Assembly (NCBI RefSeq): GCF_004010195.1
Contig: NC_057717.1
Span: forward strand, 69,451,573 to 69,515,572
DNA: 64,000 nt
Source: Chiloscyllium plagiosum
Taxonomy: Eukaryota
Direction: 5' to 3'
The notes beneath the pieces were generated by a model that saw nothing but the letters and a program-made list of their open reading frames with translations, was not told the DNA's origin and searched no databases. Made by a program: the position numbers and the translations under genes. Positions 24,129 to 58,900 of the stretch are shown one piece after another. Position 1 is the first letter of the stretch. Every line of letters begins with the position of its first letter.

Positions 24129-25260
24129 CTTTGGTGGGAATGAGCAGAAGCTACTGCAACATATGAATGGACACCACACAACAATTAACAGACAGGAGTG
24201 TTCCCTTCCAGACGGTGAACCCTTCAGTGGGCCAGGACATTCGACCTTGGATCTTCTTGTGATTGTCCTCCAAGGTGAACTTCGGGATGGGCACCAAAGC
24301 AAACTGGCCGAGCAGAGGCTTACATCCAAGTTCGGTACCTGTGAGGATGGCCTCAAACGGGACTTTGGTTTCAAGTCACACTACACACTGCACTACACAC
24401 ACACACACACACACACACACAAAGAAATTTGTCGGGTGAATTTGTACTTGAAGAATTACATTTTATTATTCTCAAAAACTACACGAATCTGTGTTAGATT
24501 CTTTCAGTCCTTTTTCAAGTCACACTACACACTGCACTACACGCACACGCACACACACAAAGAAATTTGTCGGGTGAATTTGTACTTGAAGAATTACATT
24601 TTATTATTCTCAAAAACTACACGAATCTGTGTTAGATTCTTTAAGTCCTTTTTCAAGTCACACTACACACTGCACTACACACACACACACACACACAAAG
24701 AAATTTGTCGGGTGAATTTGTACTTGAAGAATTGCATTTTATTATTCTCAAAAACTACATGAATCTGTGTTAGATTCTGTAAGTCCTTTTTCTAGATCAG
24801 AATCAGTCTGAACATTGTGTCACAGACAGTCTCACAGAGGACACCTCACAATTTAAATGCATTATCTGGGCCGACATTAGACTAATTGTTAAAGTTCACT
24901 TGAGAATGTAACTTTAAGAATGTTCTGTGATTTACATATGAAAGAACTGAAACCAACATGTTCATTCTAAAAGATGAGAAACTTATATTATATATTGAAC
25001 TGGATTGTCTTAATTTTCTCATCTTTAAAATGAACGTGTTGGTTTCAGTTCTTTCATATGTAAATCGCAGAACATTCTTAAAGTTACATTCACATGGTAA
25101 ATTTTTGCTGCAAATTCTGTGTCTTACAATCTTGTACTCAACAACCACCTGATGAAGGAACAGCGCTCCAAAACCTAGTGCTTCCAAATAAACCTGTTGA
25201 ACTATAACCTGGTATGGTGTAAGTTTTCACTTTCTAACCCCAGTCCAACACCGGCATCCT
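24129..25260 (+). mobile_element. Penelope-like element: GIY-YIG C-terminus, 3' region and decayed hammerhead
   Basis: QHMNGHHTTI...FSGPGHS...LAEQRLTSKFGT...GLKRDFGF; CACCTGATGAAGGAACAGCGCTCCAAAACCTAGTG at ~25146-25180. Confidence 0.75.
24370..24791 (+). repeat. Three tandem copies of a ~140-bp unit containing (CA)n
   Basis: TTCAAGTCACACTACACACTGCAC starts at ~24370, 24513 and 24652. Confidence 0.92.
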
Positions 25261-30243: not shown

Positions 30244-31937
30244 ACTGACAAGGGTTTGTCGCAAGTTGGTGATGACTAAAACTGAAGGAGAATGTGAAAA
30301 CTCCATGCAGACAGATGCCCGAGGCGGGAGTTGAACCTGGATCCACCGGCACTGTGAGGCAACAGTGCGAACCACTGAGCCACCGTGCCACCCCCTTAAT
30401 GTGCCTGTCCATGCTTTCCGACAGTTGAAGAATTCACAAATTTAGAGAAGACAGGAACTGGAGGGTAGTAGAGCACATTGTTTATTTAGGCACGGAGAAT
30501 AGAGTAAGATTAATTTCAATTAACATACTGGCGCGATTTTTGGAATGTAGCAATCTGAATGAGATTGCTCACATTAGTTAAGTGTTGATGACCATTTATT
30601 TCGACATCAGTTAAAGCGGGGAATGCAGACAGAAACTGTTTTCAATTCATACATTTTTTTTAAATCGTTGTTTAGAAAGAGGAATCAAGGAAAATAACTT
30701 GCCATTGCTAAGCACATCTGAGAGTAAATACTTGCCCTAATGTATCCAACAGAGATGCATTCACACAATGGAATGTATTGGTTTTGAGCAGTGCGTGCAA
30801 CATTTCCAAAGTTCAAAAAATATTTTAAGTATATGCAGAAATAATTTAGAGAATATTCTATTTCCGCCGGAACTGTGCTTGTATTGGTGAAATGGTACAC
30901 CACAATAATTTTCTTATTTACAAGCACGATTAAGTTTATTAAACCAGTAGGTAATCTTACTTCACTGTGAAAACGTTCTGAGAAGCATTGATGTTTTCTC
31001 TCTGGCTAGTCTCTATTATGAAAGTTAAATTACAGTGAATACATTTGATGTGACGAATTGAGCAGATATATCTTCTCAGATCATTACTGTTGTACAATGA
31101 GTTCCCGTGTTATCTCGACCGAGTTGTCAGCTGTTCCTGACCAGTTGTAAATCGACCGGTTCGGACACCTGAATCTCAGACAGTTCAATTTCATGTGGTG
31201 CTTCAAAACCACTTTTGTCTGCCAGATATTAGGCGCCACAGAATTGAAAGACCTGACTGAATTGTTACAATCAGATTAAACACTTCAGTAACCAAAGTCA
31301 TATTGTAAGACCCCTGAAGTCAGTTGTTAGCAATGAACGATATATCATTCAGTGAGACAGAGAGAAATATGCTGCATATTTTCTTTGTGACTCTCTTGTC
31401 AGTGACACATTTAGTGGCACAAGGTAGAATAAAATTATTAATAACTTATTGTCAGCATGTAATGTTACTGGTAAAGGTGATGTTACACTTCAAAAATTTC
31501 TAATCTATTTCAACCTAAGCAGACCATCTGGTGCAGCAACATACACAGGGTTAAAGGGAAGGGAGTTGTCAGTTGAAATCCAGTGACAGTAAATTTATGG
31601 CAGCGCAAATCCTAGTTTTATTCCTCTACAGTTCCCATAGAGCTTGAAAACTCGGAATTGCTATCAAAGCATTCTTGGATAATTTTTGAAATGCTACTTT
31701 CATCGTTTAAGCATTTTATAACAATCCCTGGTTGCTGAAATCCTTGGTTAATTATTAACAAATTTGTGCACTCTCAAACCGGTGGTCTGTGTTGTCGGAG
31801 ATTATGTTCCGATCTGGTATAATGTTGTGGCAGTGAGTCTGACTCTGAGGCAGATGGTTTGTGTACATTTACAACCTGTTAGAGAGGAATGTAATACCAT
31901 GTCTTATCCGGTTAATTCGGGCGAAAACACATTGAGT

Positions 31938-32496
31938 TTTTTCATTAGCAGAGGGATTGAATTCAAGAGTCGTGAAGTGATGTTGCAACTGGTCAGGACT
32001 TTGGTTAGGCCACATTTGGAGTACTGTGTGCAGTTCTGGTCGCCTCACTTCAGGAAAGTTGTGGAAGCTTTGGAGAGGGTGGAGAGAAGATTTACCAGGA
32101 TGTTGCCTCGAATGGAGAATAGGTCGTACGAGGATAGGTTGAGAGTGCTAGGCCTTTTCTCATTGGAACGGCGAAAGATGAGGGGTGACTTGATAGAGGT
32201 TTATAAGATGATCAGAGGAATAGATAGAGTAGACAGTCAGAAACTTTTTCCCCGGGTACAACAGAGTGTTACAAGGGGACATAAATTTAAGGTGAAGGAT
32301 GGCAGGTATAGGGGAGATGTCAGGGGTGGGTTGGAATGCGCTGCCTGTGGGAGTGGTAGAGTCAGAATCTTTGGTGACCTTTAAGCGGCAATTGGATAAG
32401 TACATGGATGGGTGCTTAAACTAGGACAAATGTTCGGCACAACATCGTGGGACGAAGGGCCTGTTCTGTGCTGTATTGTTCTATGTTCTATGTTCT
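31938..32496 (+). mobile_element. 5'-truncated CR1, present only in the + IgM copy
   Basis: FISRGIEFKSREVMLQL...LEYCVQFWSP; (CTATGTT)n tail; empty site CATTGAGTTCTTTGAGTAC at ~60685-60703 in the paralog. Confidence 0.92.
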
Positions 32497-35400
32497 TTGA
32501 GTACTATTGGAAGTCCACTCACAGAGGCCTGTGAAATCGATTTAATCGCTGTCCAGACTTGGGCCTCAGGTATTAGACAGACTGTTGGCAGTTTGCAGCC
32601 TTTTTCAAATCAATATTTGTTCACTAGCTTTTGGGAATTGTGAACTGGGTTAATCGTGTAACTCGAGGAGATAGTGAGGACTGCAGATGCTGGAGATCAG
32701 AGCTGAAAATGTGTTGCTGGAAAAGCGCAGCAGGTCAGGCAGCATCCAAGGAACAGGAGAATCGACGTTACGGCACAAGTCCTTCTTCAGGAATCTCCTG
32801 AAATCCTCAAAGAAATCCGGGACTTTGACTTGCTGTTATATCAATACCATTTATAACTAACCCACAATTAATTATTCCCAAAGCATATTTGATGACATTA
32901 AGTTGGAGCAGTTTTCGTTCGTATCAAACCATTACTGTGAGTGAATTTGACTGTTCAGTCCGGTGGGAGTTTGGTTGAATCCAACACTTTGGTGGTAGCT
33001 TTTCAACTAGTCTTCAACTGATATCTCAGATCATCCAGTACATCTTCTTATAATGCTTTTCCATCAGAAGTTAGGTAAACTTAATCACCGTCTAACTCAA
33101 TCGGAATGAGTTCTCGTTCGAGAAAATATGAAAACAATTTGCTGAAGGCGGATCACTGCACTTGAAATGATAAGCTTCCTTTCTCTGCACAGGAACTGCC
33201 AGACCTGCCGCTTTTCTTCAGAGAATTCTGTTTTTATTTCGGGTTTCTAGCATTCAAGGTTTGTTGTTTCATTTAAAAAAATAAGTCCTTTATATGAAAC
33301 AAGTTGTTCAGAGAGAAAATATATTTTACCAAATTGTGAATTGTCAGAAATATTTAATACCAGGTCATCGTTGAAAGTGAGTGATCTCATGTAGAGCCAT
33401 AATTTCAGAAGAAACTGTATGATGAAGTAACAACCTGTTCCAGAGGGCAATGGCTGCTGTATAGAATTATAGAATCTCTGCAGTGTAGAAACAAGCCATT
33501 TTTCTCAACAAGTCCATACCTACTCTTTGAAGAGTAACCCACCCAGACACATTCCCCTACCCTATAGATCATACATTTAACTCTAATGAATACATCTAAA
33601 TGACATATCCCTGAACACCACGTGCAATTTAGCATGGCCAATTCATCTGACCTTCGCATCTTTGGAGTGTACTTAGGCGGGAGTTATCCTGACCACTCAA
33701 ATAGTGAATGTCGATGCTCCTGTTCCAAATAATCAACAGGAATATTTAAAGAATATTTTCAACAATTAATTCGTTGAAATATTTTAGTAAATGGTGTTCA
33801 GCATCTTTGCTAGCTGAATTCATGACACAATGATAGGAAGGTATGATCAGGAGTAAAACACTCAGCCCCTCGAGCTATTCCACCACTCACTTAAAACATG
33901 GTACATCTGCGAGATAACCTTTGACTAAAAATCTTTAATACATCTGATTAACAAGCAATAACTATCCCCGATTTAATGATTCAACTGCACATAACAGAGG
34001 GAGACACCATTTCTGAAAGGCATTTGTGTAAGTATGTAATGTGACACAATGAGGCTGTAATTAATTGCTCGTGAAAATAAGTTTTAAGTTTCTGACAATT
34101 TCCAACTCAATCATCCCAATCGTCAGATCCCTTTAATTTAACATTATTTTTCTTTATTCCAGGGAAGTATAATGTGTGATTGCCGTGCTAAAAATGAGGA
34201 AAGCTTCTTGCCCATTAAATTAATAAGAAGTAATTCACTGGAAATACAATCAAACGACACACAACGAAACTATGAAGCACATCATCTTTGTGTGGACACG
34301 CAAGCGCCAGAATAATCTTCATTTTTTCAAGTAGTTATTTGCATCTGTAGATAGGCGTGGAAATGTTAGGCATTTTATATCTCCTTGAGAGATCAGTTGA
34401 CTTTGGCCTCCTTGGCTTTCCGACATTTGTGTGGTATTAACATTTTCACAGCTCTGTCAGGAAGTGAGTTCCAAGGCTGTGATACAGAAAGAGTAAAGGG
34501 GCAATGAAAGAATTGCAAGTCAAAATGTAGTAATGTTTGGAGGAACAGTCAACAGTCTTACCCACACACGATAAGATTGAACCCTTTTGTGTACTGTTCA
34601 ACTAAAGAATGAACCTTTGGATTTCACTGTCACAGAAAGGGTTTGAGGTCAAAACAAAAAATGATTTCAAGAAGGTGATAGTTTTTTCAAGCGTTGAAGG
34701 AAACAATAGGTATGTGGGGAAAAAAAGTTGATCCGTGTACAATATTAATTGAAAATTGTGAAAAATTTGAATGGGGCATAGTTTTTAAGTTTTCACATAA
34801 CAGCAAAATTGGTTCTATAATTGACAATAAAAGTTATCTAAAAGTACAACGAGATCATGATCAGCTGGGCCAATGGGCAGAGAAGGGGCAGATAGAGTTC
34901 AGTTTCAACTGAATATGACTCATTGCATTTTGGGAACAGAAATCACTTAAAGTGAATGATAGTGCACTGGGTCGTGATGTCGAACAGAAGCACCTGGGGA
35001 TTCAGATACATAGATTCGTACAGAGTTAATGATATGGCAATGGGTAGTTTTGTCGAACATAGGGACCTGAGGCATCAGTTACATATATTCTTGAAAGTGG
35101 TGTCTCAAGTAGCTGGCGTGTTCAAGATTGAGTTTGCAAAATGTGTTCTCATTGCACAGAGCATTGAGAATAAAGGTTTAGAGTTTGTGTTGCAACTGTA
35201 CCTGACATTGGAATGAACTGCCGGAGGAAGTGGCAAATGCATACCCAGTTACAAAATTTCCAAGACATTTGGACAGGTACGGGAATTGAATACATCTGGA
35301 TAGATATGGGCCAAATACCGGCTAATAGAATTTGTTTCGTTTGGGAACCCTGGTTGTCATGGACGAGCTGGGACGAATGGACTGTTTCTGTGTTGTATGA

Positions 35401-35543
35401 CTCTCTAAATTTCTGACTTTATGGTGGAGTTGGCTGAAAGTTGGAAGGTGAGGAGAAAGTGAGGTCTGCAGATGCTGGAGATCAGAGATGGAAATGTGTT
35501 GCTGGAAAAGCGCAGCAGGTCAGGCAGCATCTAGGGAACAGGA

Positions 35544-35580
35544 GAATCGACGTTTCGGGCATTAGCCCTTCTTCAGGAAT
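35544..35580 (-). ncRNA. Minimal hammerhead motif in the PLE 3' terminal repeat
   Basis: ATTC-CTGAAGA-A-GGGC(TAAT)GCCC-GAAA-C-GTC-GATTC, downstream of the GIY-YIG coding region. Confidence 0.7.
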
Positions 35581-36141
35581 GAGGAAAGTTGGTCCAGAAG
35601 GCTAAGATAAAATAGAGGGAGGAGGGACTTGGGGGAGGGGCGTCGGAAATGAGATAGGTGGAAAGAGGTCAAGGTGAGGGTGATAGGTCAGACTGGGATG
35701 GGGGCGGAGAGGTCGGGAAGAAGATTGCAGGTTAGGAAGGCGGTGCTGAATTTGATGGATTTGACTGAGACAGGCTGGGGGAGGGGAACTGAGGAAACTG
35801 GTGAAATCCAGTTCATCCCTTGTGGTTGGAGGGTTCCTAGCCGGAAGATGAGGCGTTCTTCCTCCAACCGTCGTTTCGCTGTGGTCTGACGATGGAGGAG
35901 TCCAAAGACCTGCATACCCTTGGTGGAGTGGGAGGGGGAATTGAAATGTTGAGCCACAGGGTGGTTGGGTTGGTTGGTCCGGGTGTCCCAGAGGTGTCCT
36001 CTGAAACACTCCGCAAGTAGGCGGCCTGTCTCCCCAATATAGAGGAGGCCACATCGGGTACAGAGGATGCAATAGATGATATGTGTGGAGGTGCAGGTGA
36101 ATCTGTGGCAGATATGGAAGTTTCCTTTGGGGCCTTGGAGG

Positions 36142-36549
36142 GAGGGGAGGTGTAGTCCAGGTAGCTGTGGGTACAGGGGGCAAGATGGGAGGAGGTGTAG
36201 TCCAGGTAGCTGTGGGTACAGGGGGCAAGATGGGAGGAGGTGTAGTCCAGGTAGCTGTGGGTACAGGGGGCAAGATGGGAGGAGGTGTAGTCCAGGTAGC
36301 TGTGGGTACAGGGGGCAAGATGGGAGGAGGTGTAGTCCAGGTAGCTGTGGGTACAGGGGGCAAGATGGGAGGAGGTGTAGTCCAGGTAGCTGTGGGTACA
36401 GGGGGCAAGATGGGAGGAGGTGTAGTCCAGGTAGCTGTGGGTACAGGGGGGCAGGATGGAGGAGGTGTAATCCAGGTAGCTGTGGGTACAGGGGGCAAGA
36501 TGGGAGGAGGTGTAGTCCAGGTAGCTGTGGGTACAGGGGGCAGGATGGG
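36142..36549 (+). repeat. 45-bp minisatellite, about 9 copies
   Basis: Unit GGGAGGAGGTGTAGTCCAGGTAGCTGTGGGTACAGGGGGCAAGAT. Confidence 0.97.
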
Positions 36550-36769
36550 AGTTGGAAGGTGGTGATCCAGTGAGGAGGTAGGTTGGTGATGTGGTAGACT
36601 TTGAGCTGATAGGCCGTGAGGTGTTGGGTGGCTGCTGGGTGAGCTTGCATGCACCTAGTCTGGCAGGGTGGCATCAAAGCAAATCATAATGGTCACAAGG
36701 AAATAAGTTGGTCACATTGTGCTTGGAATGTGAATGGTCGTTTGAGCAGCAATGCATGGTGTCTCCCTG

Positions 36770-37110
36770 GTACCAAGATGGTTAATTGAGTGGCCAGGAG
36801 GCTGCAGGGCTGGTTAGTTGTGAGGTGGGGAGTGAGTCATGTTGGGTAATTGAGTGGTAAACAGGGTGTCAGACTGGTTAGTTCAGACATTGGCAAGACG
36901 TCAGACTGGTTAGTTGAGAATTTGGCAGAGTGTCGGACTGGTTAGTTGCGAGATGTGCAGGCTGTCGGGCTGGTTAGTTGAGAGTTTGGCAGGGTGTCAG
37001 ACTGGTTATTTAAGAGATGGGCAGAGTGTCAGACTGGTTAGCTGAGAGCTGGGCAGGCTGCCGGGCTGGTTAGTTGAGAGGTGGGCAGGGTGTCGGGAAG
37101 TTTAGTTGAT
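36770..37110 (+). repeat. G-rich ~31-32-bp degenerate tandem repeat in the J-CH1 intron (paralog 57160-57520)
   Basis: Recurring GGCAGGGTGTCRGACTGGTTAGTTGAGAG. Confidence 0.88.
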
Positions 37111-38317
37111 CGCCTTATCAGAATGCTGGGCTGTTTCGATGACAGAAGGTTACTGTACTGATGTGTCAAGTGGATATGATGTCAAAACTTAAAGCTCGGA
37201 GTGTGGCGAAGGGCTGATGGGAACAGAGCTAGGATGCAATTTGCACAGGTTGACTTGGGTAAGATGAGAGGTTAGTGGTGAAGGTCTGAGGTCATATCTG
37301 GGGGAGTGGTATCCTGTCAGGGGTTGTGAAAAGTCTGATGTCAGGACTAGATTCACCAAGGACCAGGTGCAGTGTAGCAGGAATGGAATTGAGTGAAAGA
37401 AATCGAGATTACATTGTCGTTCGGAATATGGATTGCCTTGAATGTGTGTTATCTCTTGAGATGAGGGTCATGTGTTCCGAGGGTGGATGAGCGTGTAACA
37501 GTGTAGGGGTTGTCAATGTGAGTGGAAATTGAGGTTGAGAGAGAGAGTCAGAGCGGTGGTTAGTCTGAGAGATTAGAGTTTTACCATGAACTGCTTGTAA
37601 GTTTAATAGTTATTGGAGTAAGAGTACTTGTTCATTTCTCGAATCATATTCACATAAATGCTCAGTTCAGCTAGCTGTCGCACTCCAAAGTCTCTGAACC
37701 TTAATGGTCCTCTATGTTTCTGAGGCCTCCAGAATTCAGATAATTGTCAAGTCGATCATTGAGCTTCCAGATAATTGGCATGATATCAGCTGTGACAGAC
37801 ATTCTCTCAGTCCCAGTGCCCTGCAACTGCCTTCTTCACAGAGAGGAGTTTCTGACTGACATTGATAAGCGAGGAAGGGACACTGCACTCGAAACGTTCA
37901 CTCTGCTTTCTCTCCACTGATGCTGCCAGTTGTTGGGTTTCTCCAGCAACTTCGGTTTTTATTTCCAATCCCAACTTCCACCTTTTCTTGGTTTGCATTT
38001 TGTGAAACGACTATGCTCGTCACCTGCAATCCAATGAAAGTGTTAGTTGGTGAGCGTTTCTAACAGTTACTTTTCGTGGGATCAGGGCGTTCTTATTTTT
38101 AAGTTATATCGTAATGGTCAAGGTCGAGGGCATATTTCTGACGAGGGAACCAATAGATCATGATCAACGACTGATTGGAAACAAAAATAAACTTAAGGTA
38201 TGCTGAAGATTTTAGCAGGAACACACTGGCATACATTTACAGCTGAGGAAACATTTAGGTAACCAATAAGTTCGAATTATCAGAAAGTAACTTGCTCAAT
38301 TGATCATTCTATCCTAG

Positions 38318-38585
38318 AGACTGTATCTACCCCCACACTTTATGGACTTGCCTCCTCCTGTCAGCAACACAACGCCGACGGTTCTGTGATCTTTGGTTGT
38401 GGTGACGTGGAAGAAAGGTGGGCAGCCAATCACGACTGCATTGAAGACTTATCCATCCGTGAGAAACAAGAAGGGAACTTACACCCTGAGCAGCCAGTTA
38501 ACCCTGCCTGAGTCAGAAGCGGATTGCAGCAAAATCTCCTGTGAGGTTCAACACAGCGGGTCAAAGCAGAGCACTGGAATGCCAT
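38318..38585 (+). pseudogene. IGHM: IgM CH1 exon (+ cluster), frameshifted
   Basis: AG acceptor; [27 protein letters not shown], then a frame change to [33 protein letters not shown]...[15 protein letters not shown]; donor GTAAG. Length 268 bp (3n+1); the LAMDYSP-type segment is missing. Confidence 0.93.
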
Positions 38586-40653
38586 GTAAGTCTTGTGGGA
38601 ACTGAGGTGAACAGTACATCTGTGGTTAACATGAATAGGGCATTAGTTATAATACATTTGACATAGCCATAGAGATATACAGCATAGGAAATGGTCATTC
38701 GGCCAATCCAGTCCAAGCCAATCAATAACAGTTCCCTAACTATTCCAGTTCAATATGTCCGCAATTGATCCATTGCTTTGTGTGACTTGGCATTTCTTAT
38801 ATGCATCTAAATATTTCTCATATATTATGCGGGGCTCAGCCTCGACATGACTTACTGGCACTGAGCTACAGATTCACACCCTCTGTGTGATTTTGTTTTC
38901 CCCGATATCCTCCTGTCCTTACCTTAACCCTATGCCCTTGAGACATTGCTCCATACATTAAGGGAAAATGTTTTGTTCTGTTTACTCTGTGTATGTCTAC
39001 GTTAATTCCAGACATCACAATCATCTTCTCTCTCAATCTGCTCTGCTCCAAGAAAAACCCCAGTTTGGTGAATCACATTTCATACTTAAAAACTTCAAGC
39101 CCAGGAAAAATCCTGGAATATCTCAACAATGCTGCCTTCTGTCTAATCAATTCCTTCAATAACATGCAGTCCTATACTACGCACGATGCTTCATGTCTGT
39201 CTTAACCAGTATTTCATTAATTTCCAGTATCTTCACCCAACACCTAATGTAAATGTCTTGGCTCATAAAAGCAAATACCATTCACACATTCTTAACCTTT
39301 TTATCCCCCTGCCACATAACTATAAGGGATCGATGGGCATGAAATCCTTTTCAGGGTTTCACCATTCAAAACATTATACCTCTTAGTTTCTTCTGACCAA
39401 GTGCATCACCTTAGACTTATCCAGAATGATTTCAATTTGCCATTTCTCAGCACAAGTGGCCAACCCTTCTGTATCTTGCTGCAATCTAAAGCTGTCATGG
39501 TCAGAACCTGCCAACACGGCAATTTTCGCTTCATCTGTGAACTTACTAGCCAAATCTCCTGCAGTATATTCTAAATCACTTTTACATAATAGAGACATCA
39601 ATAAATCAACACTGAATCCTGCAGAACACCACTAGACATATACTTCCAGCCACACAAATATCCTACGGCCATTATCCTCTGCACTCCGCTACTCAGCGAC
39701 CTCAGGATTCAATTCGTCAAATTGACATGATCTCACCTGGCTCTGATCTTTACTATCATCTGGACATCGACTTATTTCTGCGAAAACTACCATCAAATTG
39801 CTCAGACATGACTTTCTCTCAATAAATTCGTGCTGATAATTGTTGATTACTCTTCCAGATGAAGGTTAATTCCCCTCTCCATAGTTACAATGTCTTCCCT
39901 ACTACTGAGTCTAGCTTGAGCCGAGCCTGTGGTTTCATTGTTTTTCCCTTCATCCGTCCTGCATAACAATTCCATTTTGGCAGTTTTGCCCTATCCCCTG
40001 TGGCCAGAAATTATAAATTATTGCCAGCGACCCACTATTTCATCCTTTACCTGGCATACATTTTATCTGCCCTGGAAATATAACTATTTTTCATCCAGCA
40101 AGACAGCACATCACATCATCTATCCTAAATCCTGAACAAAACATCACAACACTTCTCCATGTTTTCGATACCCACATATTCCCTCACACTGGTGAACATC
40201 AACAATCTTTACCGCCCTTCTACCTTTCCTGCCTCGCTTGAAGACATTATATTTGGAATATTGAACTGCCACTCCTCCCCCTCTCTCAACATGTCTCCAT
40301 GATATTAACACTTCCTCCTTTATGCCGTTAACTCATCTGCCTTGTTTATCATGCTCCTATCATTGAAATGAATGCCATCCAACATTACTATCTCACCCTC
40401 TGATTTAACTGGCCTATCATTTCTGTGTCTTCTTGACTTCCTTGCTGTGACCTGTAATTTTAGCATTACATTGTCATTATCACATCGTCCTGCTAATTGT
40501 ACTGTGTTGATCTCAGCTTCTATAACACTCTGCATAATTATGATACTTGTAATAATAAGGTTAGTATCTATTAGCCATAAAAAAACTTTGTTATAATAGA
40601 ACTGAATTTGTTATCAAATTTGTCAGATAATTTATGCAATGTTTTTCATAAAG

Positions 40654-40957
40654 GCCCATTTCTCCCGCCAACTCTTCTTCTGACCGTGGGTCCCAGTGAA
40701 GAAATCGCAAGTAGCAAGTTTGCAACCATCATCTGTTCAATCATTGATTTCCATCCGAAGGAAATCTCCGTGCCATGGTTGAAAAATGGCCGTGGATTCT
40801 GTTGTCTTCACGTCTCCTGTGTGTGAGGCGGATGGGAACTTCTCGGTGATGAGTCGGCTGACAGTCCCTTATGGTGAATGGTTCAACAACGCAGTCTATA
40901 CCTGCCAGGTCACTCATGGAGAGAACACTCAAAGTCAAAACATCACCACACACCAGG
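40654..40957 (+). pseudogene. IGHM: IgM CH2 exon (+ cluster), 5-bp deletion and dead splice donor
   Basis: [45 protein letters not shown] / [43 protein letters not shown]. Lacks the AATCC present in the paralog; donor reads ATAAG instead of GTAAG. Confidence 0.93.
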
Positions 40958-42791
40958 ATAAGACATACATACGAGAGAACTAGAAATCATTTTGAACTCC
41001 CATGTGAATCAGATACACACATTGATCAAATTTAGTGAACAGCACTAAGGTGTACAGCATCCCATTCACAAACGTGTCATGTATTTCAGTTTGAGTGTTA
41101 CATTGGCATTGCTCATTATTCAACATTATGTCAAATCAGAAAAGCATGTTTCCCTTTATATTGAAGACATATAGGCAGTGAGCTGGATTAATAGTCTTTT
41201 TTAAAGTAGTTTGTTGGCTGACCACATTTTTGGAGAGGCAGAGTGCCGAATCCATACCTGGTGACTTGCTTAAGGATAAAGGGTTGGGGTGGGGGAGGGG
41301 TGCGTGTCTGGTGGGGGCCGGGGTGCAGGGTCAGAGAAGTATTTCTTTGAAACAGAGAGCATGCTGAGAGGCCGAGATTGGATGAACGTGGAGTAAATGT
41401 ATTGGCCAGTCGGCTAGAGTAGGACATGAGTGCATATCCTCGGAGTCAAAGGGTGCACCATTTGGCATTGACATGGGGAAGAATTTCTTCAGCCAGAGGG
41501 TGGTGGATGTGTGGAATTAATTGCTCAGAGGGTTATGGAGGCCAAGTCAGTGATTGTATTTAAGGTGGCGATAGATCGGTTCGTACATGGAGAAGGCTGG
41601 AGAATGGAGTAGAAGAACATACCAGCCATGATCGAATGGCAGGGCAGACTCGATTGGCCGAACTGCCTCATTCTGCACCTTTACCTTACTATCTTGTGAC
41701 ATCGTAAAATGTGCAGCGACCCTTTTTTCAAAAGAGATCAAAATCTGTTCAGTGCTTCATTTCCAGTTCAGGAATGACTTGTTGTCCTTGGGCATTGTAC
41801 GTCATAGATTTTATCTGGTACTGAGCTCTTCAACTTCATTCATGGGACCAGGCCGCAGACCAAGTTGGTATCACATTTGATTAATCTGGATAAACATGAC
41901 CTAATTGTGCCTCTTTAAGATACTCTCTGCAATTAGTGGATGTGGCAGGAGAATACATTCTAGTGGTAAGGCGATGAACGATCTAGGAATTTGAGTCAGA
42001 CTGATTGAGCCCAGGTGAGGATGGAAATGTTCATGCATGAGCAGTGGAAGTCTGAATAATACTCGCGCAAATTTCCATCAAGTTGGTAGAATAATTTAAG
42101 ACACTCGTATTTGTTTAGTCTTTGTTCTACTAAGGAATTCACTGTTTTGTTTTTAGATCTACTCCAAATTTGACAGGAGTGATAATATCTCATGGTATGT
42201 TTTAGAGAATGATCTCACACCAATAATGTCAATTATTTTCAATAACGTTAAAGATATTGATTAGAATTTCTGTTACTGATCACTGCCCCGTAACACCTTA
42301 TATCCTCTGCAAATACATGAGAACAAAGACAATAATTATGATTGATTACAGTTTGCCCAAAATTCAGGATGTAATTTGGCATTCAGAATGCCCAGCAGCA
42401 TTTGCAAGTAAGTTTCATGAACATAGAAATGAAGTCGTTATATTCAGATTACTCTTGTCACAAGTATCAATGGATGGTCGTAAGTGAGAGATGAACTCTG
42501 GAAGGAAGGTAATTCCATGTGTTACGCCATGGTATCTTTGATTTTACTTTTTCACAGGTTTCACTTGTTACAAAGCCAGTGTTCTTTATGAATGATTACA
42601 CGGGGCATGTTATAGATAATAACAAATGTTTTCACAAATCAAAATATATAAACAACAGGAATCATCATTTCAGCAATAGTTGGAAGCTGCCATTTCAAAG
42701 TGGTTTCTTCACTTCATGTGGGAGTAGCCTGAAGACTCGGTGTTTTGATTCTACAGAGGCATTTTTCATTGATTTGATTTTTGTTTCATAG

Positions 42792-43100
42792 AGGTTAATG
42801 AGTGCCACGATTACACAGTTAAAATTCTACCACCGCCAGTAGAACAGGTCTTACTGGAGGCGACGGTGACATTAACCTGTGTTGTGTCCAAGCTTCCTTC
42901 TGGAGTCAATGTCACCTGGATACAAGAAAAGAAGACTCTGAAATCAGAGATTGCTAACCAGCCTGGAGAAGATACCGACAGCGTGATCAGCATATTGAGC
43001 ATTTCTACTCAAACCTGGCTGAGTCACGTTAGTTTTGAATGCGTGGTGAATCATCCGTATCTACCGACTCCTCTGAGAGACTCCATCCGCAAGGGAAATG
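42792..43100 (+). pseudogene. IGHM: IgM CH3 exon (+ cluster); this exon is intact
   Basis: 309 bp with AG/GT boundaries; [42 protein letters not shown]...[22 protein letters not shown]. Confidence 0.93.
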
Positions 43101-44544
43101 GTGAGCGTAGAGATGAAAGAACAAAGTATTCCATGTGTAATCTAGATCCAGTTACACACATGGCATGCTTAGATTGGCTCCAAATAACGTTGGAACCATA
43201 AAAGATGTGTCTGATGGCAGGATAGCTAAATATCTGATTGAGAACAGAATGGACCAAAGGTTGNNNNNNNNNNNNNNNNNNNNNNNNNNNNNNNNNNNNN
43301 NNNNNNNNNNNNNNNNNNNNNNNNNNNNNNNNNNNNNNNNNNNNNNNNNNNNNNNNNNNNNNNNNNNNNNNNNNNNNNNNNNNNNNNNNNNNNNNNNNNN
43401 NNNNNNNNNNNNNNNNNNNNNNNNNNNNNNNNNNNNNNNNNNNNNNNNNNNNNNNNNNNNNNNNNNNNNNNNNNNNNNNNNNNNNNNNNNNNNNNNNNNN
43501 NNNNNNNNNNNNNNNNNNNNNNNNNNNNNNNNNNNNNNNNNNNNNNNNNNNNNNNNNNNNNNNNNNNNNNNNNNNNNNNNNNNNNNNNNNNNNNNNNNNN
43601 NNNNNNNNNNNNNNNNNNNNNNNNNNNNNNNNNNNNNNNNNNNNNNNNNNNNNNNNNNNNNNNNNNNNNNNNNNNNNNNNNNNNNNNNNNNNNNNNNNNN
43701 NNNNNNNNNNNNNNNNNNNNNNNNNNNNNNNNNNNNNNNNNNNNNNNNNNNNNNNNNNNNNNNATTATTTCTGTATTTGTAATAACTTTTATCAACCCGT
43801 CAATTTACATTTAATTGTTACAGTTATCATGTGAATTACTGCACTTCACTGAGTACTTAACCAAAACAATCCCCAAAGCACAATAAAGTAAAACTGCAAA
43901 TTAAATACTGTCTCTAATTATTACAAAATAAAAGCATTTAGCAATTCAATGACATCAAATTGCTGGGAATCTGGTAAGCTAGTCAGATCTGAGGTCGGCA
44001 AGAAGTTACAGGAGGTCATTAATAAATTTACAGTGCGGTGAAATAATTGGCAAACGAAATTCGACACAGATGAATGTAACGTGATGTATCTTGGTAGGAA
44101 TAGTGTAGCAGGTCACTTATTCGAATTTGCACGTCTAATTGGGAGAGACAGATAAAGGGGTCTCACACAATTACATCAGTCACTAAAAAAAATGCCAAAG
44201 GAAAACGAAGACCATCAAAACACAAACAAAGCTCTAAGCTTTATGAATAAATGGAGAGATTTGAAAGTAGGGATATCTTGCTAAATTCCTACTAAAACTG
44301 GTTTCGATTTTAATTAAAAGTATTGCGTGCAGTTCCTGCTGCCACGTTATAGAATGGACACACAAGCAGTGGAGAGGATGAAGAGAGATTTAAAAGAGTG
44401 AAACACAAAATTTTTAGTGTGTATATTTTTGGAGGAGTTGTCGTGCTGTTCCCTCTTTCTTGAAAAGAAAAACAGGCTGAGGAGTCAAAAATTATGAAAG
44501 GTTTTGATAAGAGCAGAGGCAGAGAAAACATTTCCTCCATGAGG

Positions 44545-50376: not shown

Positions 50377-51033
50377 CTGCAGAATTTTATGAAACCAATA
50401 TAAATCAACTATAAAAATCCAGAATCAACATTGCAATTTCACTACATATTAAAATATGTCAGTTTTGTTTTTAAATTTGGGCTTTATACACTCTTATTTT
50501 CTAAACCAGCAGAATAATATCCATTCTGTTCACTAAGAGTAAAGAGTTTAATTCGAAAGTCGACTCCATGTTTCTAACCCACAACTAAGACATCCTGTAC
50601 ATTTGTCATTGCTCATGTTAAAAACACAAACCAGGTTTCTTCCCACTTTATTTGACTTATAATCATGAAAGATCACCTTTGGTCCATTCTGTTCTCAATC
50701 AGATATTTAGCTATCCTGCCATCAGACAGGATAGCCAACATACCATGAGATGTTATTACTCCTGTCAAATTTGGAGTAGATGTAAAAACTAAACCGTGAA
50801 TTCTTTAGTAGAACAAAGACTAAACAAATACGAGTGTCTTAAATTATTCTACCAACTTGATGGAAATTTGCGCGAGTATTATTCAGACTTCCACTGCTCA
50901 CTGCAAGAACATTTCCATCCTCACCTGGGCTTTCATGGTCCCAAAGTTATTTGGAGCCAATCTAAGCATGCCATGTGTGTAACTGGATCTAGATTACACA
51001 TGGAATACTTTGTTCTTTCCTCTCACCGCTCAC

Positions 51034-51342
51034 CATTTCCCTTGCGGATGGAGTCTCTCAGAGGAGTCGGTAGATACGGATGGTTCACCACACATTCAAA
51101 ACTAGCGTGACCCAGCCAGGTTTGAGTAGAAATGCTCAATTTGCTGATCACGCTGTCGGTATCTTCTCCAGGCTGGTTAGCAATCTTTGATTTCAGAGTC
51201 TTCTTTTCTTGTGATCAGGTGACATTGACTCCAGAAGGAAGATTGGGCACAACACAGGTTAATGCCACCGTCGCCTCCAGTAAGAAATGTTCTACTGGCG
51301 GTGGTAGAATTTTAACTGTGTAATCGTGGCACTCATTAACTC
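51034..51342 (-). pseudogene. IGHM: IgM CH3 exon (- cluster) with nonsense mutation
   Basis: 309-bp paralog of 42792-43100; the conserved Trp codon TGG has become TGA at 51215-51217. Confidence 0.92.
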
Positions 51343-52157
51343 CTATGAAACAAAAATCAAATCAATGAAAAATGCCTCTTTGGAATCAAAACACCGAGCC
51401 TTCAGGCTACTCCCACATGAAGTGAAGAAACCACTTTGAAATGACAGCTTCCAACTATTGCTGAACTAATGGTTCCTGTTGTTTATATATTTTGATTTGT
51501 GAAAACATTTGTTATTATCTATAACATGCTCCGTGTAATCATTCATAAAGGACACTGGCTTTGTAACAAGTGAAACCTGTGAAAAAGTAAAATCAAAGAT
51601 ACCATGGCGTAACACATGGAATTACCTTCCTTCCAGAGTTCTTCTCTCACTTACGACCATCCATTGATACTTGTGACAAGAGTAATCTGAATATAACGAC
51701 TTCATTTCTATGTTCATGAAACTTACTTGCAAATGTTGCTGGGCATTCTGAATGCCAAATTACATCCCCAATTTTGGGCAAACTGTAATCATACTTATTG
51801 TCTTTGTTCTCATGTATTTGCAGAGGATATAAGGTGTTACGGGGCAGTGATCAGTCACAGAAATTCTATTGAATATGTTTAATGTTATTGAAAATAATTG
51901 ACATTATTGGTGTGAGATCATTCTCTAAAACATACCATGGGATGTTATTACTCCTGTCAAATTTGGAGTAGATGTAAAAACAAAACAGTGAATTCCTTAG
52001 TAGAACAAAGACTAAACAAATACGAGTGTCTTAAATTATTCTACCAACTTGATGGAAATTTGCGCGAGTATTATTCAGACTTCCACTGCTCACTGCAAGA
52101 ACATTTCCATCCTCACCTGGGCTCAATCAGCCTGACTCAAATTCCGAGATCGTTCAG

Positions 52158-52285
52158 GGCTTATGCCCGAAACGTCGATTCTCCTGTTCCCTGGATGCTG
52201 CCTGACCTGCAGCGCTTTTCCAGCAACACATTTCCAGCTCTGATCTCCAGCATCTGCAGACCTCACTTTCTCCATCCCTACTGTA
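52158..52285 (+). mobile_element. PLE terminal-repeat mini-insertion, specific to the - IgM copy
   Basis: Absent at the paralogous site ~41965-41990 (GGTAAGGCGATGAACGATCT). Confidence 0.85.
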
Positions 52286-53309
52286 GCCTTACCACTAGAA
52301 TGTATTCTCCTGCCACATCCACTAATTGCGGAGAGTATCTTAAAGAGGCTCAATTAGGTCATGTTTATCCAGATTAATCAAATGTGATAACAACTTGGTC
52401 TGCGGCCTGGTCCCATGAATGAAGTTGAAGAGCTCAGTACCAGATAAAATCTATGACGTACAATGCCCAAGGACAACAGGTCATTCCTGAACTTGAAATG
52501 AAGCACTGAACACATTTTGAGTTATTTTGAAAAAAAGGTCGCTGCACATTTTACCATGTCATTTTGAGACCACAAGATAGTAAGATAAAGGTGCAGAATG
52601 AGGCAGTTCGGCCAATCGAGTCTGCCCTGCCATTCGATCATGGCTGGTATGTTCTTCTACCCTATTCTCCAGCCTTCTCCATGTACTAACCGATCTATCG
52701 CCACCTTAAATACAGTCACTGACTTGGCCTCCATAACCCTCTGCAACAATGAATTCCACACATGCACCACCCTCTGGCTGAAGAAATTCTTCCCCATCTC
52801 AGTGCCAAATGGTGCACCCTTTGACTCCGAGGATATGCCCTCATGTCCTACTCTAGCCTACTGGCCAAAACATTTACTCCACGTTCATCCAATCTCGGCC
52901 TCTCAGCATGTTCTATGTTTCAACGAAATACCTCTCTGACCCTGCACCGGCCCCCACAAGACACGCACCCCTCCCCCACCCCAACCCCTTTATCCTTAAG
53001 CAAGTCACCAGGTATGGATTCGGCACTCTGCCTCTCCAAATGTAGTCAGCCAACAAACTACTTTAAAAAAGACTGTTAATCCAGCTCACTGTCTATATGT
53101 CTTCAATATAGAGGGAAACATGCTTTTCTGATTTGACATAATGTTGAATTATGAGCAATGCCAATGTAACACTCAAACTGAAATACATGACACGTTTGTG
53201 AATGGGATGCTGTACACCTTAGTGCTGTTCACTAAATTTGATCAATGTGTGTATCAGATTCACATCGGAGATCAAAATGATTTCTAGTTCTCTCGTATGT
53301 ATGTCTTAC

Positions 53310-53617
53310 CCTGGGGTGTGGTGATGTTTTGACTTTGTGTGTTTAGTCCATGAGTGGTCTGGCATGTATACACTGCGCTGTTGAACCATTCACCATAAGG
53401 GACTGTCAGCCGACTCATCACCGAGAGGTTCCCATCCGCCTCACACACAGGAGACGTGAAGACAACAGAATCCACGGATTGGCCATTTTTCAACCATGTC
53501 ACGGAGATTACCTTCGGATGGAAATCAATGATTGAACACATGATGTTGCAAACTTGCTGCTTGCGATTTCTTCATTGGGACTCACGGTGAGAAGAAGAGT
53601 TGGCAGGAGAAATGGGC
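53310..53617 (-). pseudogene. IGHM: IgM CH2 exon (- cluster), 1-bp deletion
   Basis: 308 bp; GCAACATC versus GCAACCATC in the + copy; donor GTAAG intact. Confidence 0.92.
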
Positions 53618-55678
53618 CTTTATGAAAAACATTGCATAAATTATCTGACAAATTTGATAACAAATACATTCAGTTCTATTATAACCAAGTTTTTTTATGG
53701 CTAATAGATACTAACCTTATTATTACAAGTATCATAATTATGCAGAGTGTTATAGAAGCTGAGATCAACACAGTACGATTAGCAGGACGATGTGATGACA
53801 ATGTAATGCTAAAATTACAGGTCACAGCAAGGAAGTCAAGAAGGCACAGAAATGATAGGCCAGTTAAATCAGAGGGTGAGATAGTAATGTTGGATGGTAT
53901 TTATTTCATAGAAAGGAGCATGATAAACAAGACAAATGAGTTAACGGCATAAAGGAGGAAGTTTTGATATCATGGAGACATGTTGAGAGAGGGGGAGGAG
54001 TGGCAGTTCAATATTCCAAATATAATGCCTTCAAGCGAGGCACGAAAAAATGTAGAAGGGCGGTAAAAATTGTTGATGTTCACCAGTGTGAGGGAATATG
54101 TGGGTATCGAAAACATGGAGAATTGTTGAGATTTTTTTTCAGGAATTTGGATAGATGATGTGATGTGCTGTCTTGCTGGATGAAAAATAGTTATATTTCC
54201 AGGGCAGATAAAATGTATGCCAGGTAAAGGATGAAATAGTGGGTCGCTGGCAATAATTTATAATTCCTGGCCAGAGGGGATATGGCAAAACTGCCAATGT
54301 GGTATTGTTATGCAGGACAGATGAAGGGAAAAACAATGAAACCACATGCTCGGCTCAAGCTAGACTCAGTAGTAGGGAAGACATTGTAACTATGGAGAGG
54401 CGAATTAACCTTCATCTGGAAGAGTAATCAACAATTCTCAGCACGAATATATTGAGAGGAAGTCATGTCTGAGCAATTTGATGGTAGTTTTCGCAGAAAT
54501 AAGTCGATGTCCAGATGATAGTAAAGATCAGAGCCAGGTGAGACCAAGTCAATTTGACGAATTGAATCCTGAGGTAGCTGAGTGGCGGAGTGCAGAGGAT
54601 AATGGCCATAGGATGTTTGAGTGGCTGGAGGTATATGTCTAGTGCTGTTCTGCAGGATTCAGTGTTGATTTATTGATGTCTCTATTATGTTAAAGTGATT
54701 TAGAATATACTGCAGGAGATTTGGCTAGTAAGTTCACAGATGAAGCGAAAATTGCCGTGTTTGCAGGTTCTGACCATGATAGCTTTAGATTGCAGCAAGA
54801 TACAGACGGGTTGGCCACTTGTACTGAGAAATGGCAAATTGAAATCATTCTGGATAAGTCTAAGGTGATGCACTTGGTCAGAAGAAACTAAGAGATATTA
54901 TGTTTTGAATGGTGGAACCCTGAAAAGGATTTCATGCTCATCGATCCCTTAGAGTAATGTGGCAGGGGGATAAAAAGGCTAAGAATGTGTGAAGAGTATT
55001 TGCTTTTATGAGCCAAGACATTTACATTAGGTGTTGGGAGATGATACTGGAAATTAATGAAATACTGGTTAAGCCAGACATGAAGCATCGTGTGTAGTAT
55101 AGGACTGCATGTTATGGAAGGAATGTGATTAGACAGAAGGCAGCATTGTTGAGATATTCCAGGATTTTTCCTGGGCTTGAAGTCTTTAAGTATGAAATGT
55201 GATTCACCAAAATGGGGTTTTTCTTGGAGCAGAGAAGATTGAGAGAGAAGATGATTGTGATGTCTGGAATTATAGTAGACATACACAGAGTAAACAGAAC
55301 AAAACATTTTCCCTTAATGGATGGAGCAATGTCTCAAGGGCATAGGGTTAAGGTCAGGACAGGAGGATATCGGGTAAAACAAAATCACACAGAGGTTGTG
55401 AATTTGTAGCTCAGTGCCAGTAAGTCATATCGAGGCTGAGCCCCGCATAATATGTGAGAAATATTTAGATGCATATAAGAAATGCCAAGTCACACAAAGC
55501 AATGGATCAATTGCGGACATATTGAACTGGAATAGTTAGGGATTGGCTTGGACTGGATGGGCCGAATGACCTTTTCCTGTGCTGTATATCTCTATGGCTA
55601 TGTCAAATGTATTATAACCAATGCCCTATTCATGTTAACCACAGATGTACTGTTCACCTCAGTTCCCACAAGACTTAC

Positions 55679-55946
55679 ATGTCATTCCAGTGCTCTGCTT
55701 TGACCCGCTGTGTTGAACCTCACAGGAGATTTTGCTGCAATCCGCTTCTGATTCAGGCAAGGTTAACTGGCTGCTCAGGGTGTAACTTCCCTTCTTGTTT
55801 CTCACGGATGGATAAGTCTTCAATGCAGTCGTGATTGCCTGCCCACCTTCCTTCCACGTCACCACAACCAACGATCACAGAACCGTCGGCGTTGTGTTGC
55901 TGACAGGAGGAGACAAGTCCATAAAGTGTGGGGGTAGATGCAGTCT
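55679..55946 (-). pseudogene. IGHM: IgM CH1 exon (- cluster), shared frameshift deletion plus dead acceptor
   Basis: 268 bp with the same GGTTGT|GGTGACGTGG junction as the + copy; acceptor CCTAG has become CCTTG. Confidence 0.92.
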
Positions 55947-58900
55947 CAAGGATAGAATGATCAATTGAGCAAGTTACTTTCTGTTAATTCGACCTTATTG
56001 GTTACCTAAATGTTTCCTCAGCTGTGAATGTATGCCAGTGTGTTCCTGCTAAAATCTTCAGCATACCTTAAGTTTAGTTTTGTTTCCAATCAGTCGTTGA
56101 TCATGATCTATTGGTTCCCTCGTCAGAAACATGCCCTCGACCTTGACCATTACGATATAACTTAGAAATACGAACACCCTGATCCCACGAAAAGTAACTG
56201 TTAGAAAATCTCACCAACTAACACTTGCATTGGATTGCAGGTGACGAGCATAGTCGTTTCACAAAATGCAAACCAAGAAAACGTGGAAGTTGGAATTGGA
56301 AATAAAAACCGAAGTTGCTGGAGAAACCCAACAACTGGCAGCATCAGTGGAGAGAAAGCAGAGTGAACGTTTCGAGTCCAGTATCCCTTCCTCACTTATC
56401 AATGTCAGTCAGAATCTCCTCTCTGTGAAGAAGGCAGTTGCAGGGCACTGGGACTGAGAGAATGTCTGTCACAGCTGATATCATGCCAATTATCTGGAAG
56501 CTCAATGATCGACTTGACAATTATCTGAATTTTGGAGGCCTCTGAAACATAGAGGACCATTAAGGTTCAGAGACTTTGGAGTGCGACAGCTAGCTGAACT
56601 GAGCATTTATGTGAATATGATTCGAGAAATGAACAAGTACTCTTACTTCAATAACTATTAAACTTACAAGCAGTTAATGGTAAATCTCTAATCTCTCAGA
56701 CTAAACACTGCTCTGACTCTCTCTCTCAACCTCAATTTCCACTCACATTGACCACCCCGACACCGTGACACGCTCATTCACCCTCGGAACACATGACCTT
56801 CATCGCAAGAGATAACACACATTCAAGGCAATCCATATTCCGGACGACAATGTAATCTCGATTCCTTTCACTCAATTCCACTCCTGCTACACTGTACCTG
56901 GTCCTTGGTGAATCTAGTCCTGACATTAGACTTTTCACAACCCCTGACTGGATGCCACTCCCCCAAATATGACCTCAGACCTTCACCATTGACCTCTCAT
57001 TTTACCCAAGTCAACCTGTGCACATTGAATCCTAGCTCTGTTCCCATCTGCCCTTAGCCACACTCCGAGCTTTACATTTTGACATCATATCACTTGTCAC
57101 ATCAGTACAGTAACCTTCTGTCACCGAAACAGCCCAGCACTCTGCTAAGCCGATCAACTAAACTTCCCGACACCCTGCCCACCTCTCAACTAACCAGCCC
57201 GGCAGCCTGCCCACTTCTCAGCTAACCAGTCCGACACACTGCACATCTCGCAACTAACCAGTCCGACACTCTGCCAACCTCTCAACTAACCAGTCTGACG
57301 TCTTGCCAATGTCTGAACTAACCAGTCTGACACCCTGTCTACCACTCAACTAACCAACATGACTCCCTCCTCACCTCACAACTGACCAGCCCTACGCCCT
57401 GTTGGCCTCTCAACAAATTGGCCTGGCACCCTGCACACCTCCAACTAACCAGCCCCACACCCTCCTCAGCTCTCAACTATCCAGCCCTGCAGACTGCTGG
57501 CCACTCAATTAACCATCTTGGCACGAGGGAGACACCCTGCATTGCTGCTCAAACGACCCCTCACATACAAAGCACAATATGACCAAGTTATTTCCTTGTG
57601 ACCATTATGATTTGCTTTGATGCCACCCTGCCAGACTAGGTGCATGCAAGCTCACACAGCAGCCACCCAACACGTCACGGCCTATCAGCTCAAAATCTAC
57701 CACATCACCAATCTACCTCCTCACTAGATCACTAGCTTCCAACTTTCAGTCTACTCCACCATAAAGTCAGAGATTTAGAGAGTCATGCAACACAGAAACA
57801 GGCCGTTCGGCCCAGCTCGTCCATGACAACCAGGGTTCCCAAATTAAACAAATTCTCTTAGCCGGCATTTGTCCCATATTTATCCAGATCTATTCAGTTC
57901 CTGTACCTGTCCAAATGTCTTGTAAATTTTGTAACTGGATATGCATTTGCCACTTCCTCCGGCAGTTCATTCCAATGTCAGGTACAGTTGCAACACAAAC
58001 TCCCAACCTTTATACTCAATGTTCTGTGCAATGAGAACACATTTTGCAAACACATTCTTCAACACGCCTGCTACTTGAGACACCACTTTCAACAATATAT
58101 GTATCTGATCCCTCAGGTCCCTATGTTCGACAAAACTACCCATTGCCATATCATTAACTCTGTACTAATCTATGTATCTGAATCCCCAGGTGCTTCCGTT
58201 CGACATCACGACCCAGTGCACTACCATTCACTTTAAGTTGTTTCCTGATTTCTGTTCCCAAAATGCAATGAGTCATATTCAGTTGAAACTGAACTCTATC
58301 TGCCCCTCCTCTGCCCAATGGCGCAGCTGATCATGGTCTCGTTGTACTTTTAGATAACTTTTATTGTCAATTATAGAACCAATTTTGCTGTTATGTGAAA
58401 ACTTAACAATCATGCCCCATTCAATGGTTTCAAAATTTTCAACCAATATTGTACACGGTTCAACTTTTTCCCCACATACCTATTGTTTCCTTCAAAGCTT
58501 GAAAAAACTATCACCTTCTTGAAATCATTTGATGTTTTGACCTCAAACCGTTTCTGTGACAAAGAAATCCAAAGATTCATTCTTTAGTTGAACAGTACAC
58601 AAAAGGGTTCAATCTTATCGGGTGTGGGTAAGACTGTTGACTGTTCCTCCAAACATTACTACATTTTGACTTGCAATTCTTTCATTGCCCCTTCACTCTT
58701 TCTGTATCACAGCCATGGAACTCACTTCCTGACAGAGCTGTGAAAATGTTAATACCACACAAATGTCAGAAAGTCAAGGAGGCCAAAGTCGACTGATCTC
58801 TCAAGGAGATGTAAAATGCCTAACATTTCCACGCCTATCTACAGATGCAAATAACTACTAGAAAAAATGAAGATTATTCTGGCGCTTGCGTGTCCACACA

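Follow-up and report, generated by a model that had tools for sequence, protein, structure and literature searches.

A nine-unit array of a coding fragment in a Penelope-like insertion of Chiloscyllium plagiosum is probably a filled assembly gap

In a 64,000-nucleotide stretch of the Chiloscyllium plagiosum genome (contig NC_057717.1; the whole stretch is called the window below), an insertion of a Penelope-like element (PLE) at positions 35439–36561 begins with about nine near-identical 45-bp repeats of a piece of its own open reading frame (ORF), fused to the GIY-YIG endonuclease part of the same frame. The initial annotation took the repeats for a minisatellite created by template jumping and repeated re-priming of the element's reverse transcriptase (RT) during integration, or by slippage afterwards. 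Comparison of the sequence with its family leads us to conclude, with a probability of about 0.8, that the nine-unit array and its fusion to GIY-YIG are an assembly artifact, a filled gap, and that the true copy probably consists of a short two-to-three-unit 5′ iteration followed by the ordinary ORF.

The insertion is flanked by a 12-bp direct repeat, the longest flanking repeat found, with one copy at the element 3′ end (35439–35450) and the other at the 5′ end (36550–36561). The innermost base of the former may belong to the element, which would make the target site duplication (TSD) 11–12 bp long. An inverted paralogous segment (~57594–57883) aligns to both sides without the insertion, the empty site lying at 57725–57745 on the minus strand. 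Thus, the TSD and the absence of the insertion from the paralogue, both reported initially, were recovered. The window also holds a large inverted segmental duplication (~31650–43200 versus 50900–61000; ~89–97% identity in most arms). A degenerate 32-bp minisatellite (71–78% matches) is found in both duplication arms, at 36862–37096 and 57154–57487, and is therefore older than the duplication and probably real. A repeat search additionally revealed a 138-bp unit repeated three times at 24369–24792 (95%).

Read on the minus strand, the TSD is followed by an 18-bp partial unit that forms the 5′ end of the element (36532–36549, from unit-by-unit alignment), and then by unit 1, a 45-bp ORF fragment with one base unlike the commonest family forms (36487–36531). 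Relative to unit 1, unit 2 (36442–36486) carries two substitutions and two indels of one base each; both units are probably real. Units 3–8 (36172–36441) are six exact copies of unit 1 and probably the product of a gap-filling loop. The last, partial unit of 26 bp (36146–36171) shares a C-rich overlap of 5–8 bp with the body of the element, and is probably an assembly join. The body, ~700 bp long, consists of the GIY-YIG part of the ORF (35691–36145), in which the GIY-YIG core contains two Cys and is followed downstream by two His, and the 3′ untranslated end (35451–35690). A sequence resembling a minimal hammerhead core was noticed by eye in the latter, at ~35550–35578; an Rfam search up to E = 1 returned 0 matches. 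Tandem Repeats Finder reports 9.0 copies of 45 bp at 36146–36551 with 97% matches, made up of the 18-bp partial, 8 full units, and the 26-bp partial unit. The array of about nine units stands as a description of the assembled sequence; it carries the marks of gap filling and is probably not present as such in the animal.

The element belongs to an abundant family. The body (35450–36150) is 95–97% identical to 39 other long matches listed among the 40 scored of 4,976 candidates, and the genome contains 1,290 occurrences of a 31-base stretch of the unit; the first 100 of these 1,290 places listed were used as a family sample. A Pfam search with the window piece itself returned nothing, and GIY-YIG was recovered only in a longer natural copy, L134, to which the window body is 86% identical. 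L134 has an open frame of 682 amino acids, whose matches to RVT_1 (E = 2.7e-6) and to GIY-YIG (E = 3.3e-4) each fall slightly short of the Pfam curated cut-offs. The presence of RT and GIY-YIG in one frame bears out the original assignment to Penelope-like elements and is the arrangement of endonuclease-containing (EN+) PLEs, in which RT is followed by a C-terminal GIY-YIG in a single ORF (PMC8557442, PMC3846280). The window copy is, moreover, 5′-truncated and has a short TSD, as expected of an EN+ PLE. CCHH residues, the two Cys lying between GIY and YIG, could be seen by eye in translations of both the window copy and L134. A CX2-5CxxC linker precedes the endonuclease in L134 and belongs to the region that the window copy lacks. 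Such residues and such a linker mark elements of the Neptune/Nematis type (PMC8557442). Judged by its sequence, then, the element is a 5′-truncated Penelope-like element of the Neptune type, the type being assigned from the linker and the CCHH residues with L134 as a proxy. Known Neptune/Nematis elements share with it these features (linker and CCHH residues through L134), strong 5′ truncation, a short TSD, and rearranged 5′ ends. They differ in that their rearrangements are partial tandems of whole 3′ parts and inverted 5′ copies, together with 30–40-bp tails, and multi-unit arrays of an internal ORF fragment are not among the features described for them in the portions of PMC8557442 and PMC3846280 at hand. 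The insertion as such is an ordinary representative of a known type of element.

Translated on the minus strand, the 45-bp unit reads HSYLDYTSSHLAPCT. It maps once to the L134 ORF, at amino acid 376 of 682, which is 66 amino acids past the YIDD motif and 203 amino acids before the GIY-YIG core. Since L134 has RT and GIY-YIG matches in one frame and RVT_1 covers positions 147–327, the unit is an ORF fragment located just C-terminal to the RT core and natively hundreds of base pairs upstream of GIY-YIG, in agreement with the origin first proposed for it. We take the region that holds it to be the RT “thumb”; a search of solved structures for this assignment of the unit gave no relevant match. 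In intact copies, the unit starts ~505 nt ahead of the point where the window body resumes, and ~460 nt of ORF, comprising the rest of the thumb region and the Cys-rich linker, are missing between the array and the body. A real minisatellite is expected to expand in place with flanking element sequence kept; here, those ~460 nt are gone. The join of the array to GIY-YIG has 1 exact match in the genome, so the fusion is a fact of the assembly, but as a statement about the animal it is compromised by the marks of a filled gap at that join. The head-to-tail junction of the units has 8 exact genome matches, all at the window locus, and the unit is followed by itself in 0 of 100 other thumb-bearing copies. 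An array inherited as a family trait was thus rejected: alignment to the other copies showed the unit to be single in 100/100 of them, and the junction is private. Chance was also rejected as the source of the array.

Many copies of the family contain runs of N, and their lengths proved informative. N runs were present in 46/100 thumb-bearing copies. There were 44 internal runs, 23 of which were measured; the rest were dropped because of an unmapped or inverted flank (17), reversed order (2), or location in array-bearing copies (2). The 23 measured runs were shorter than the ORF sequence they replaced by a median of 236 bp (IQR 196–272), and their length tracked that of the replaced ORF (Spearman 0.86, n = 23). 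A mask would equal the hidden length; runs shorter than the replaced ORF are therefore estimated gaps, and the possibility that they are deliberately withheld stretches was rejected for the measured ones. Gap sizes in scaffolds are estimated from insert sizes, more than 90% of gaps were repeat-associated in a human test, and gap tools extend iteratively, with most partial extensions by one tool failing validation in one test (20 of 2,417) (PMC6551238, PMC4515008). PLE insertions of the Neptune/Nematis type cause trouble in short-read assemblies (Craig et al., PMC8557442).

Exact arrays (period 20–60, at least 4 copies) were found in 7/130 loci, including the window locus and one apparent duplicate pair. 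All of them lie in element DNA (135 kb) and none in 317 kb of other DNA, and they draw on different ORF pieces, of 41, 26, and 39 bp. Arrays of other ORF fragments, which the initial annotation suggested looking for, thus exist, but the length signature of the 26- and 39-bp ones is that of filled gaps. The junction of the 26-bp array occurs 1,162 times at no fewer than 53 loci, 30 of which were fetched and 29 of which were measurable. These 30 arrays are found in copies with 28 different 5′ ends and contain 0 mismatches in 13,962 array bases, while the 60 bp upstream of them show 5.5% divergence between copies (26/30 loci usable). Had the arrays aged with their elements, this divergence would predict ~380 changes in them; 0 were observed. 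The downstream ORF was kept in 0/29 measurable copies, and the net length relative to the ordinary element was −211 bp at the median (IQR −249 to −191, n = 29), with no difference from the N gaps (Mann-Whitney p 0.32). A net value within −150 to −320 was obtained for 23/29 of the 26-bp arrays versus 18/23 of the N gaps. The length filled was matched to the length lost more tightly than in shuffles (MAD 34 versus 75, p 0.001), and exactly 10 units were present in 6/30 loci. The 39-bp array has 406 junctions, and the five copies of it that were measured gave net values of about −136, −180, −175, −228, and −199. Two copies, L055 (G000:C1 near 64.50 Mb) and L130 (C2 near 109.87 Mb), are 100% identical over their shared stretch on different contigs; they share the 5′ end and a 10-unit array and differ in their flanks and 3′ parts, which is another sign of filling from pooled reads. 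Because the arrays fall short by about as much as the N gaps do across the family, they behave like filled gaps, the filled length following the estimated gap.

The window locus conforms to this behavior. If 1, 2, or 3 unit junctions are real and ordinary ORF follows, the assembled locus is short by 124, 169, or 214 bp, respectively, which places it inside or near the N-gap band. The array joins the body at reference position 1631, and two gapped copies, L008 and L024, resume nearby, at 1618 and 1612. A private base is common to units 1 and 3–8 and absent from two other flank-side units. The flank-side units alone spell the unit-1 cycle for k of 15–27, and this cycle is the sequence of units 3–8. 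We propose that short reads would fail to cross the middle of the high-copy element and that scaffolding would therefore have left a gap whose size was estimated. A gap filler would then enter the cycle formed by the real duplication (27 shared bases) and go on writing unit 1 until the estimated length had been consumed, whereupon the loop would be joined, at the short C-rich overlap, to a piece extended from the 3′ flank. The looping step is deduced from these data together with what is generally known of k-mer walks. PMC6551238 and PMC4515008, as far as consulted, describe the filling of scaffold gaps but no looping that writes perfect tandem arrays, and the literature searched (most subscription papers being outside its scope) contained no direct account of a tandem-array gap-filler artifact. 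The two-to-three-unit iteration at the 5′ end of the element is likely real, and may have arisen when the RT re-primed as cDNA synthesis was ending.

The distribution of the private base could also be explained if a real short duplication had later grown to nine units by slippage or unequal exchange, since its presence in units 1 and 3–8 only is what the expansion of one variant would leave, and tandem repeats derived from transposable elements that expand after birth are described (PMC3389668). A k-mer loop, however, yields an identical base pattern. Later expansion would further require a second, independent deletion of 460 nt, approximately the length of the array, and predicts growth in place with the ORF kept, whereas 0/29 measurable 26-bp arrays are in-place expansions with retained ORF. 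We regard slippage, the second origin offered initially, as very improbable. Minisatellites derived from transposable elements (Ahmed and Liang, PMC3389668) resemble the window array in that the tandem unit is a fragment of a young element, but they are expansions of real DNA, whereas the array in the window stands in place of missing element sequence about as long as itself.

An array that is real and was made during integration would require the RT to jump from the start of GIY-YIG to the thumb and to copy the 45-nt piece repeatedly, either re-priming each time or rolling around a small circular RNA. The array does start directly at the TSD, in the native ORF no homology flanks the unit junction, and template jumps have been proposed for PLEs (PMC3846280). 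Short iterations of ORF pieces also occur elsewhere in the family, in gap-free or imperfect contexts. L154 (~1480–1635) is a gap-free insertion of ~125 bp with a TSD of ~14 bp, in which 2.4 copies of the 26-mer are joined to the 3′ end; it is the probable seed of the 26-bp loops. L173 and L174 contain duplicated or triplicated ORF pieces, L174 (~1420–1590) having an inverted 3′ part followed by two different, imperfect short triplications (27 and 33 bp) at the 5′ junction. Similar short iterations are found in L019 and L046, and L110 has a similar 28-bp unit four times.

Reads from other animals point the same way for short repeats. These read sets (best share of words 0.40) come perhaps from another population or species, and include three raw-read runs of ~0.54-fold each. 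In all three runs, joints at L134:3054–3085 return by 27 and 32 nt to one and the same base at the start of the GIY-YIG region, and are supported by 22–69 reads per run each, the shorter side being of unit length. Only 3 pattern matches, at 2 loci, are found for these joints in the assembly, which suggests that they represent a real repeat, or a common 5′ duplication, nearly missing from it. The 26-bp joint, in contrast, was absent among the 15 of 1,211 joints listed (three raw runs and one contig set, other animals), so the commonest assembled array is not seen there; by arithmetic, real 26-bp arrays should yield roughly 130 reads per run, and the listed joints reached up to 69 reads in a run. 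Resting on 15 of 1,211 joints and on other animals, this absence lends support to an artifact but does not decide the matter. Synthesis by the RT also gives no reason for long arrays to match the shortfall of ~200–250 bp seen with N gaps, and leaves unexplained how one junction can be letter-perfect in dozens of independent, diverged insertions. We therefore consider it unlikely that the window array was built in this way during integration, and hold the same doubt about the wider proposal that, at integration, the telomerase-related RT of the family copies short internal stretches of its own RNA over and over, with the window array as a real long product. Of the re-priming claimed initially, a two-to-three-unit iteration probably remains and may indeed reflect re-priming; the nine-unit array with its GIY-YIG fusion does not find support.

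Contigs of four other samples were compared with the 5′ flank and first units of the window insertion, and none of those listed joins the flank to the element or crosses a unit junction. Two of the four samples have a high-depth contig of 95% identity that continues into empty-site sequence. These contigs may represent a paralogue, the flank being multi-copy; in other animals, it appears in contigs with depths of 66–129. A contig of run X3 (depth 13), matching window positions 36486–36552, goes back with 12 letters in between, which may reflect a distinct short duplication of this ORF segment carried by another animal.

No direct account of PLE fragment arrays was found in the literature searched, which left most subscription papers outside its scope. 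Junctions of R1/R2 elements, as far as PMC2718515 was available, show non-templated bases, microhomologies, and target duplications, and not fragment arrays. Non-LTR retrozymes are PLE-derived tandem arrays for which rolling-circle copying is proposed, but their units are hammerhead-bearing pLTR derivatives (bioRxiv 10.64898/2026.07.22.740005). The window array was rejected as a retrozyme: its 45-bp unit is an in-frame piece of the ORF, and the core resembling a hammerhead is ~570 bp away, at the 3′ end of the element.

Several observations fit a filled gap less well. In contrast to the perfect arrays shared among loci, the window array is private, lies at the 5′ end, and includes two units of variant sequence. 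A second private array, in L010 (13 × 41 bp, at the YIDD motif), is short by only ~39–96 bp unless several of its units are real. Of the 26-bp arrays, 6/29 fall outside the gap band (+286, +255, +620, −99, −402, and −815), and in L176 (G000:C1 near 14.00 Mb), 60 exact 39-bp units, 2.3 kb in all, run straight into non-element DNA with no 3′ end. L154 demonstrates that, in a gap-free insertion, a short array can directly abut the 3′ end. Moreover, looping would likewise fill a real array that exceeds the read length, and a real array of ~14 units fused to GIY-YIG would therefore fit the lengths.

As biology, the locus carries little weight, being a truncated Penelope-like insertion of the ordinary sort that starts with a short iteration. 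Perfect ORF-fragment arrays, present in ~5/100 long copies of the family, look like new minisatellites and behave like filled gaps, and other tandem arrays inside young repeats of this genome consequently need to be checked for the length signature. If RT reiteration is true, some arrays, such as those behind the 27/32-nt joints, would be real and yet collapsed or mis-sized in assemblies. If the long arrays are real, they would mean that the RT of a retrotransposon, itself sister to telomerase, can add repeats, and that minisatellites can be born in one step.
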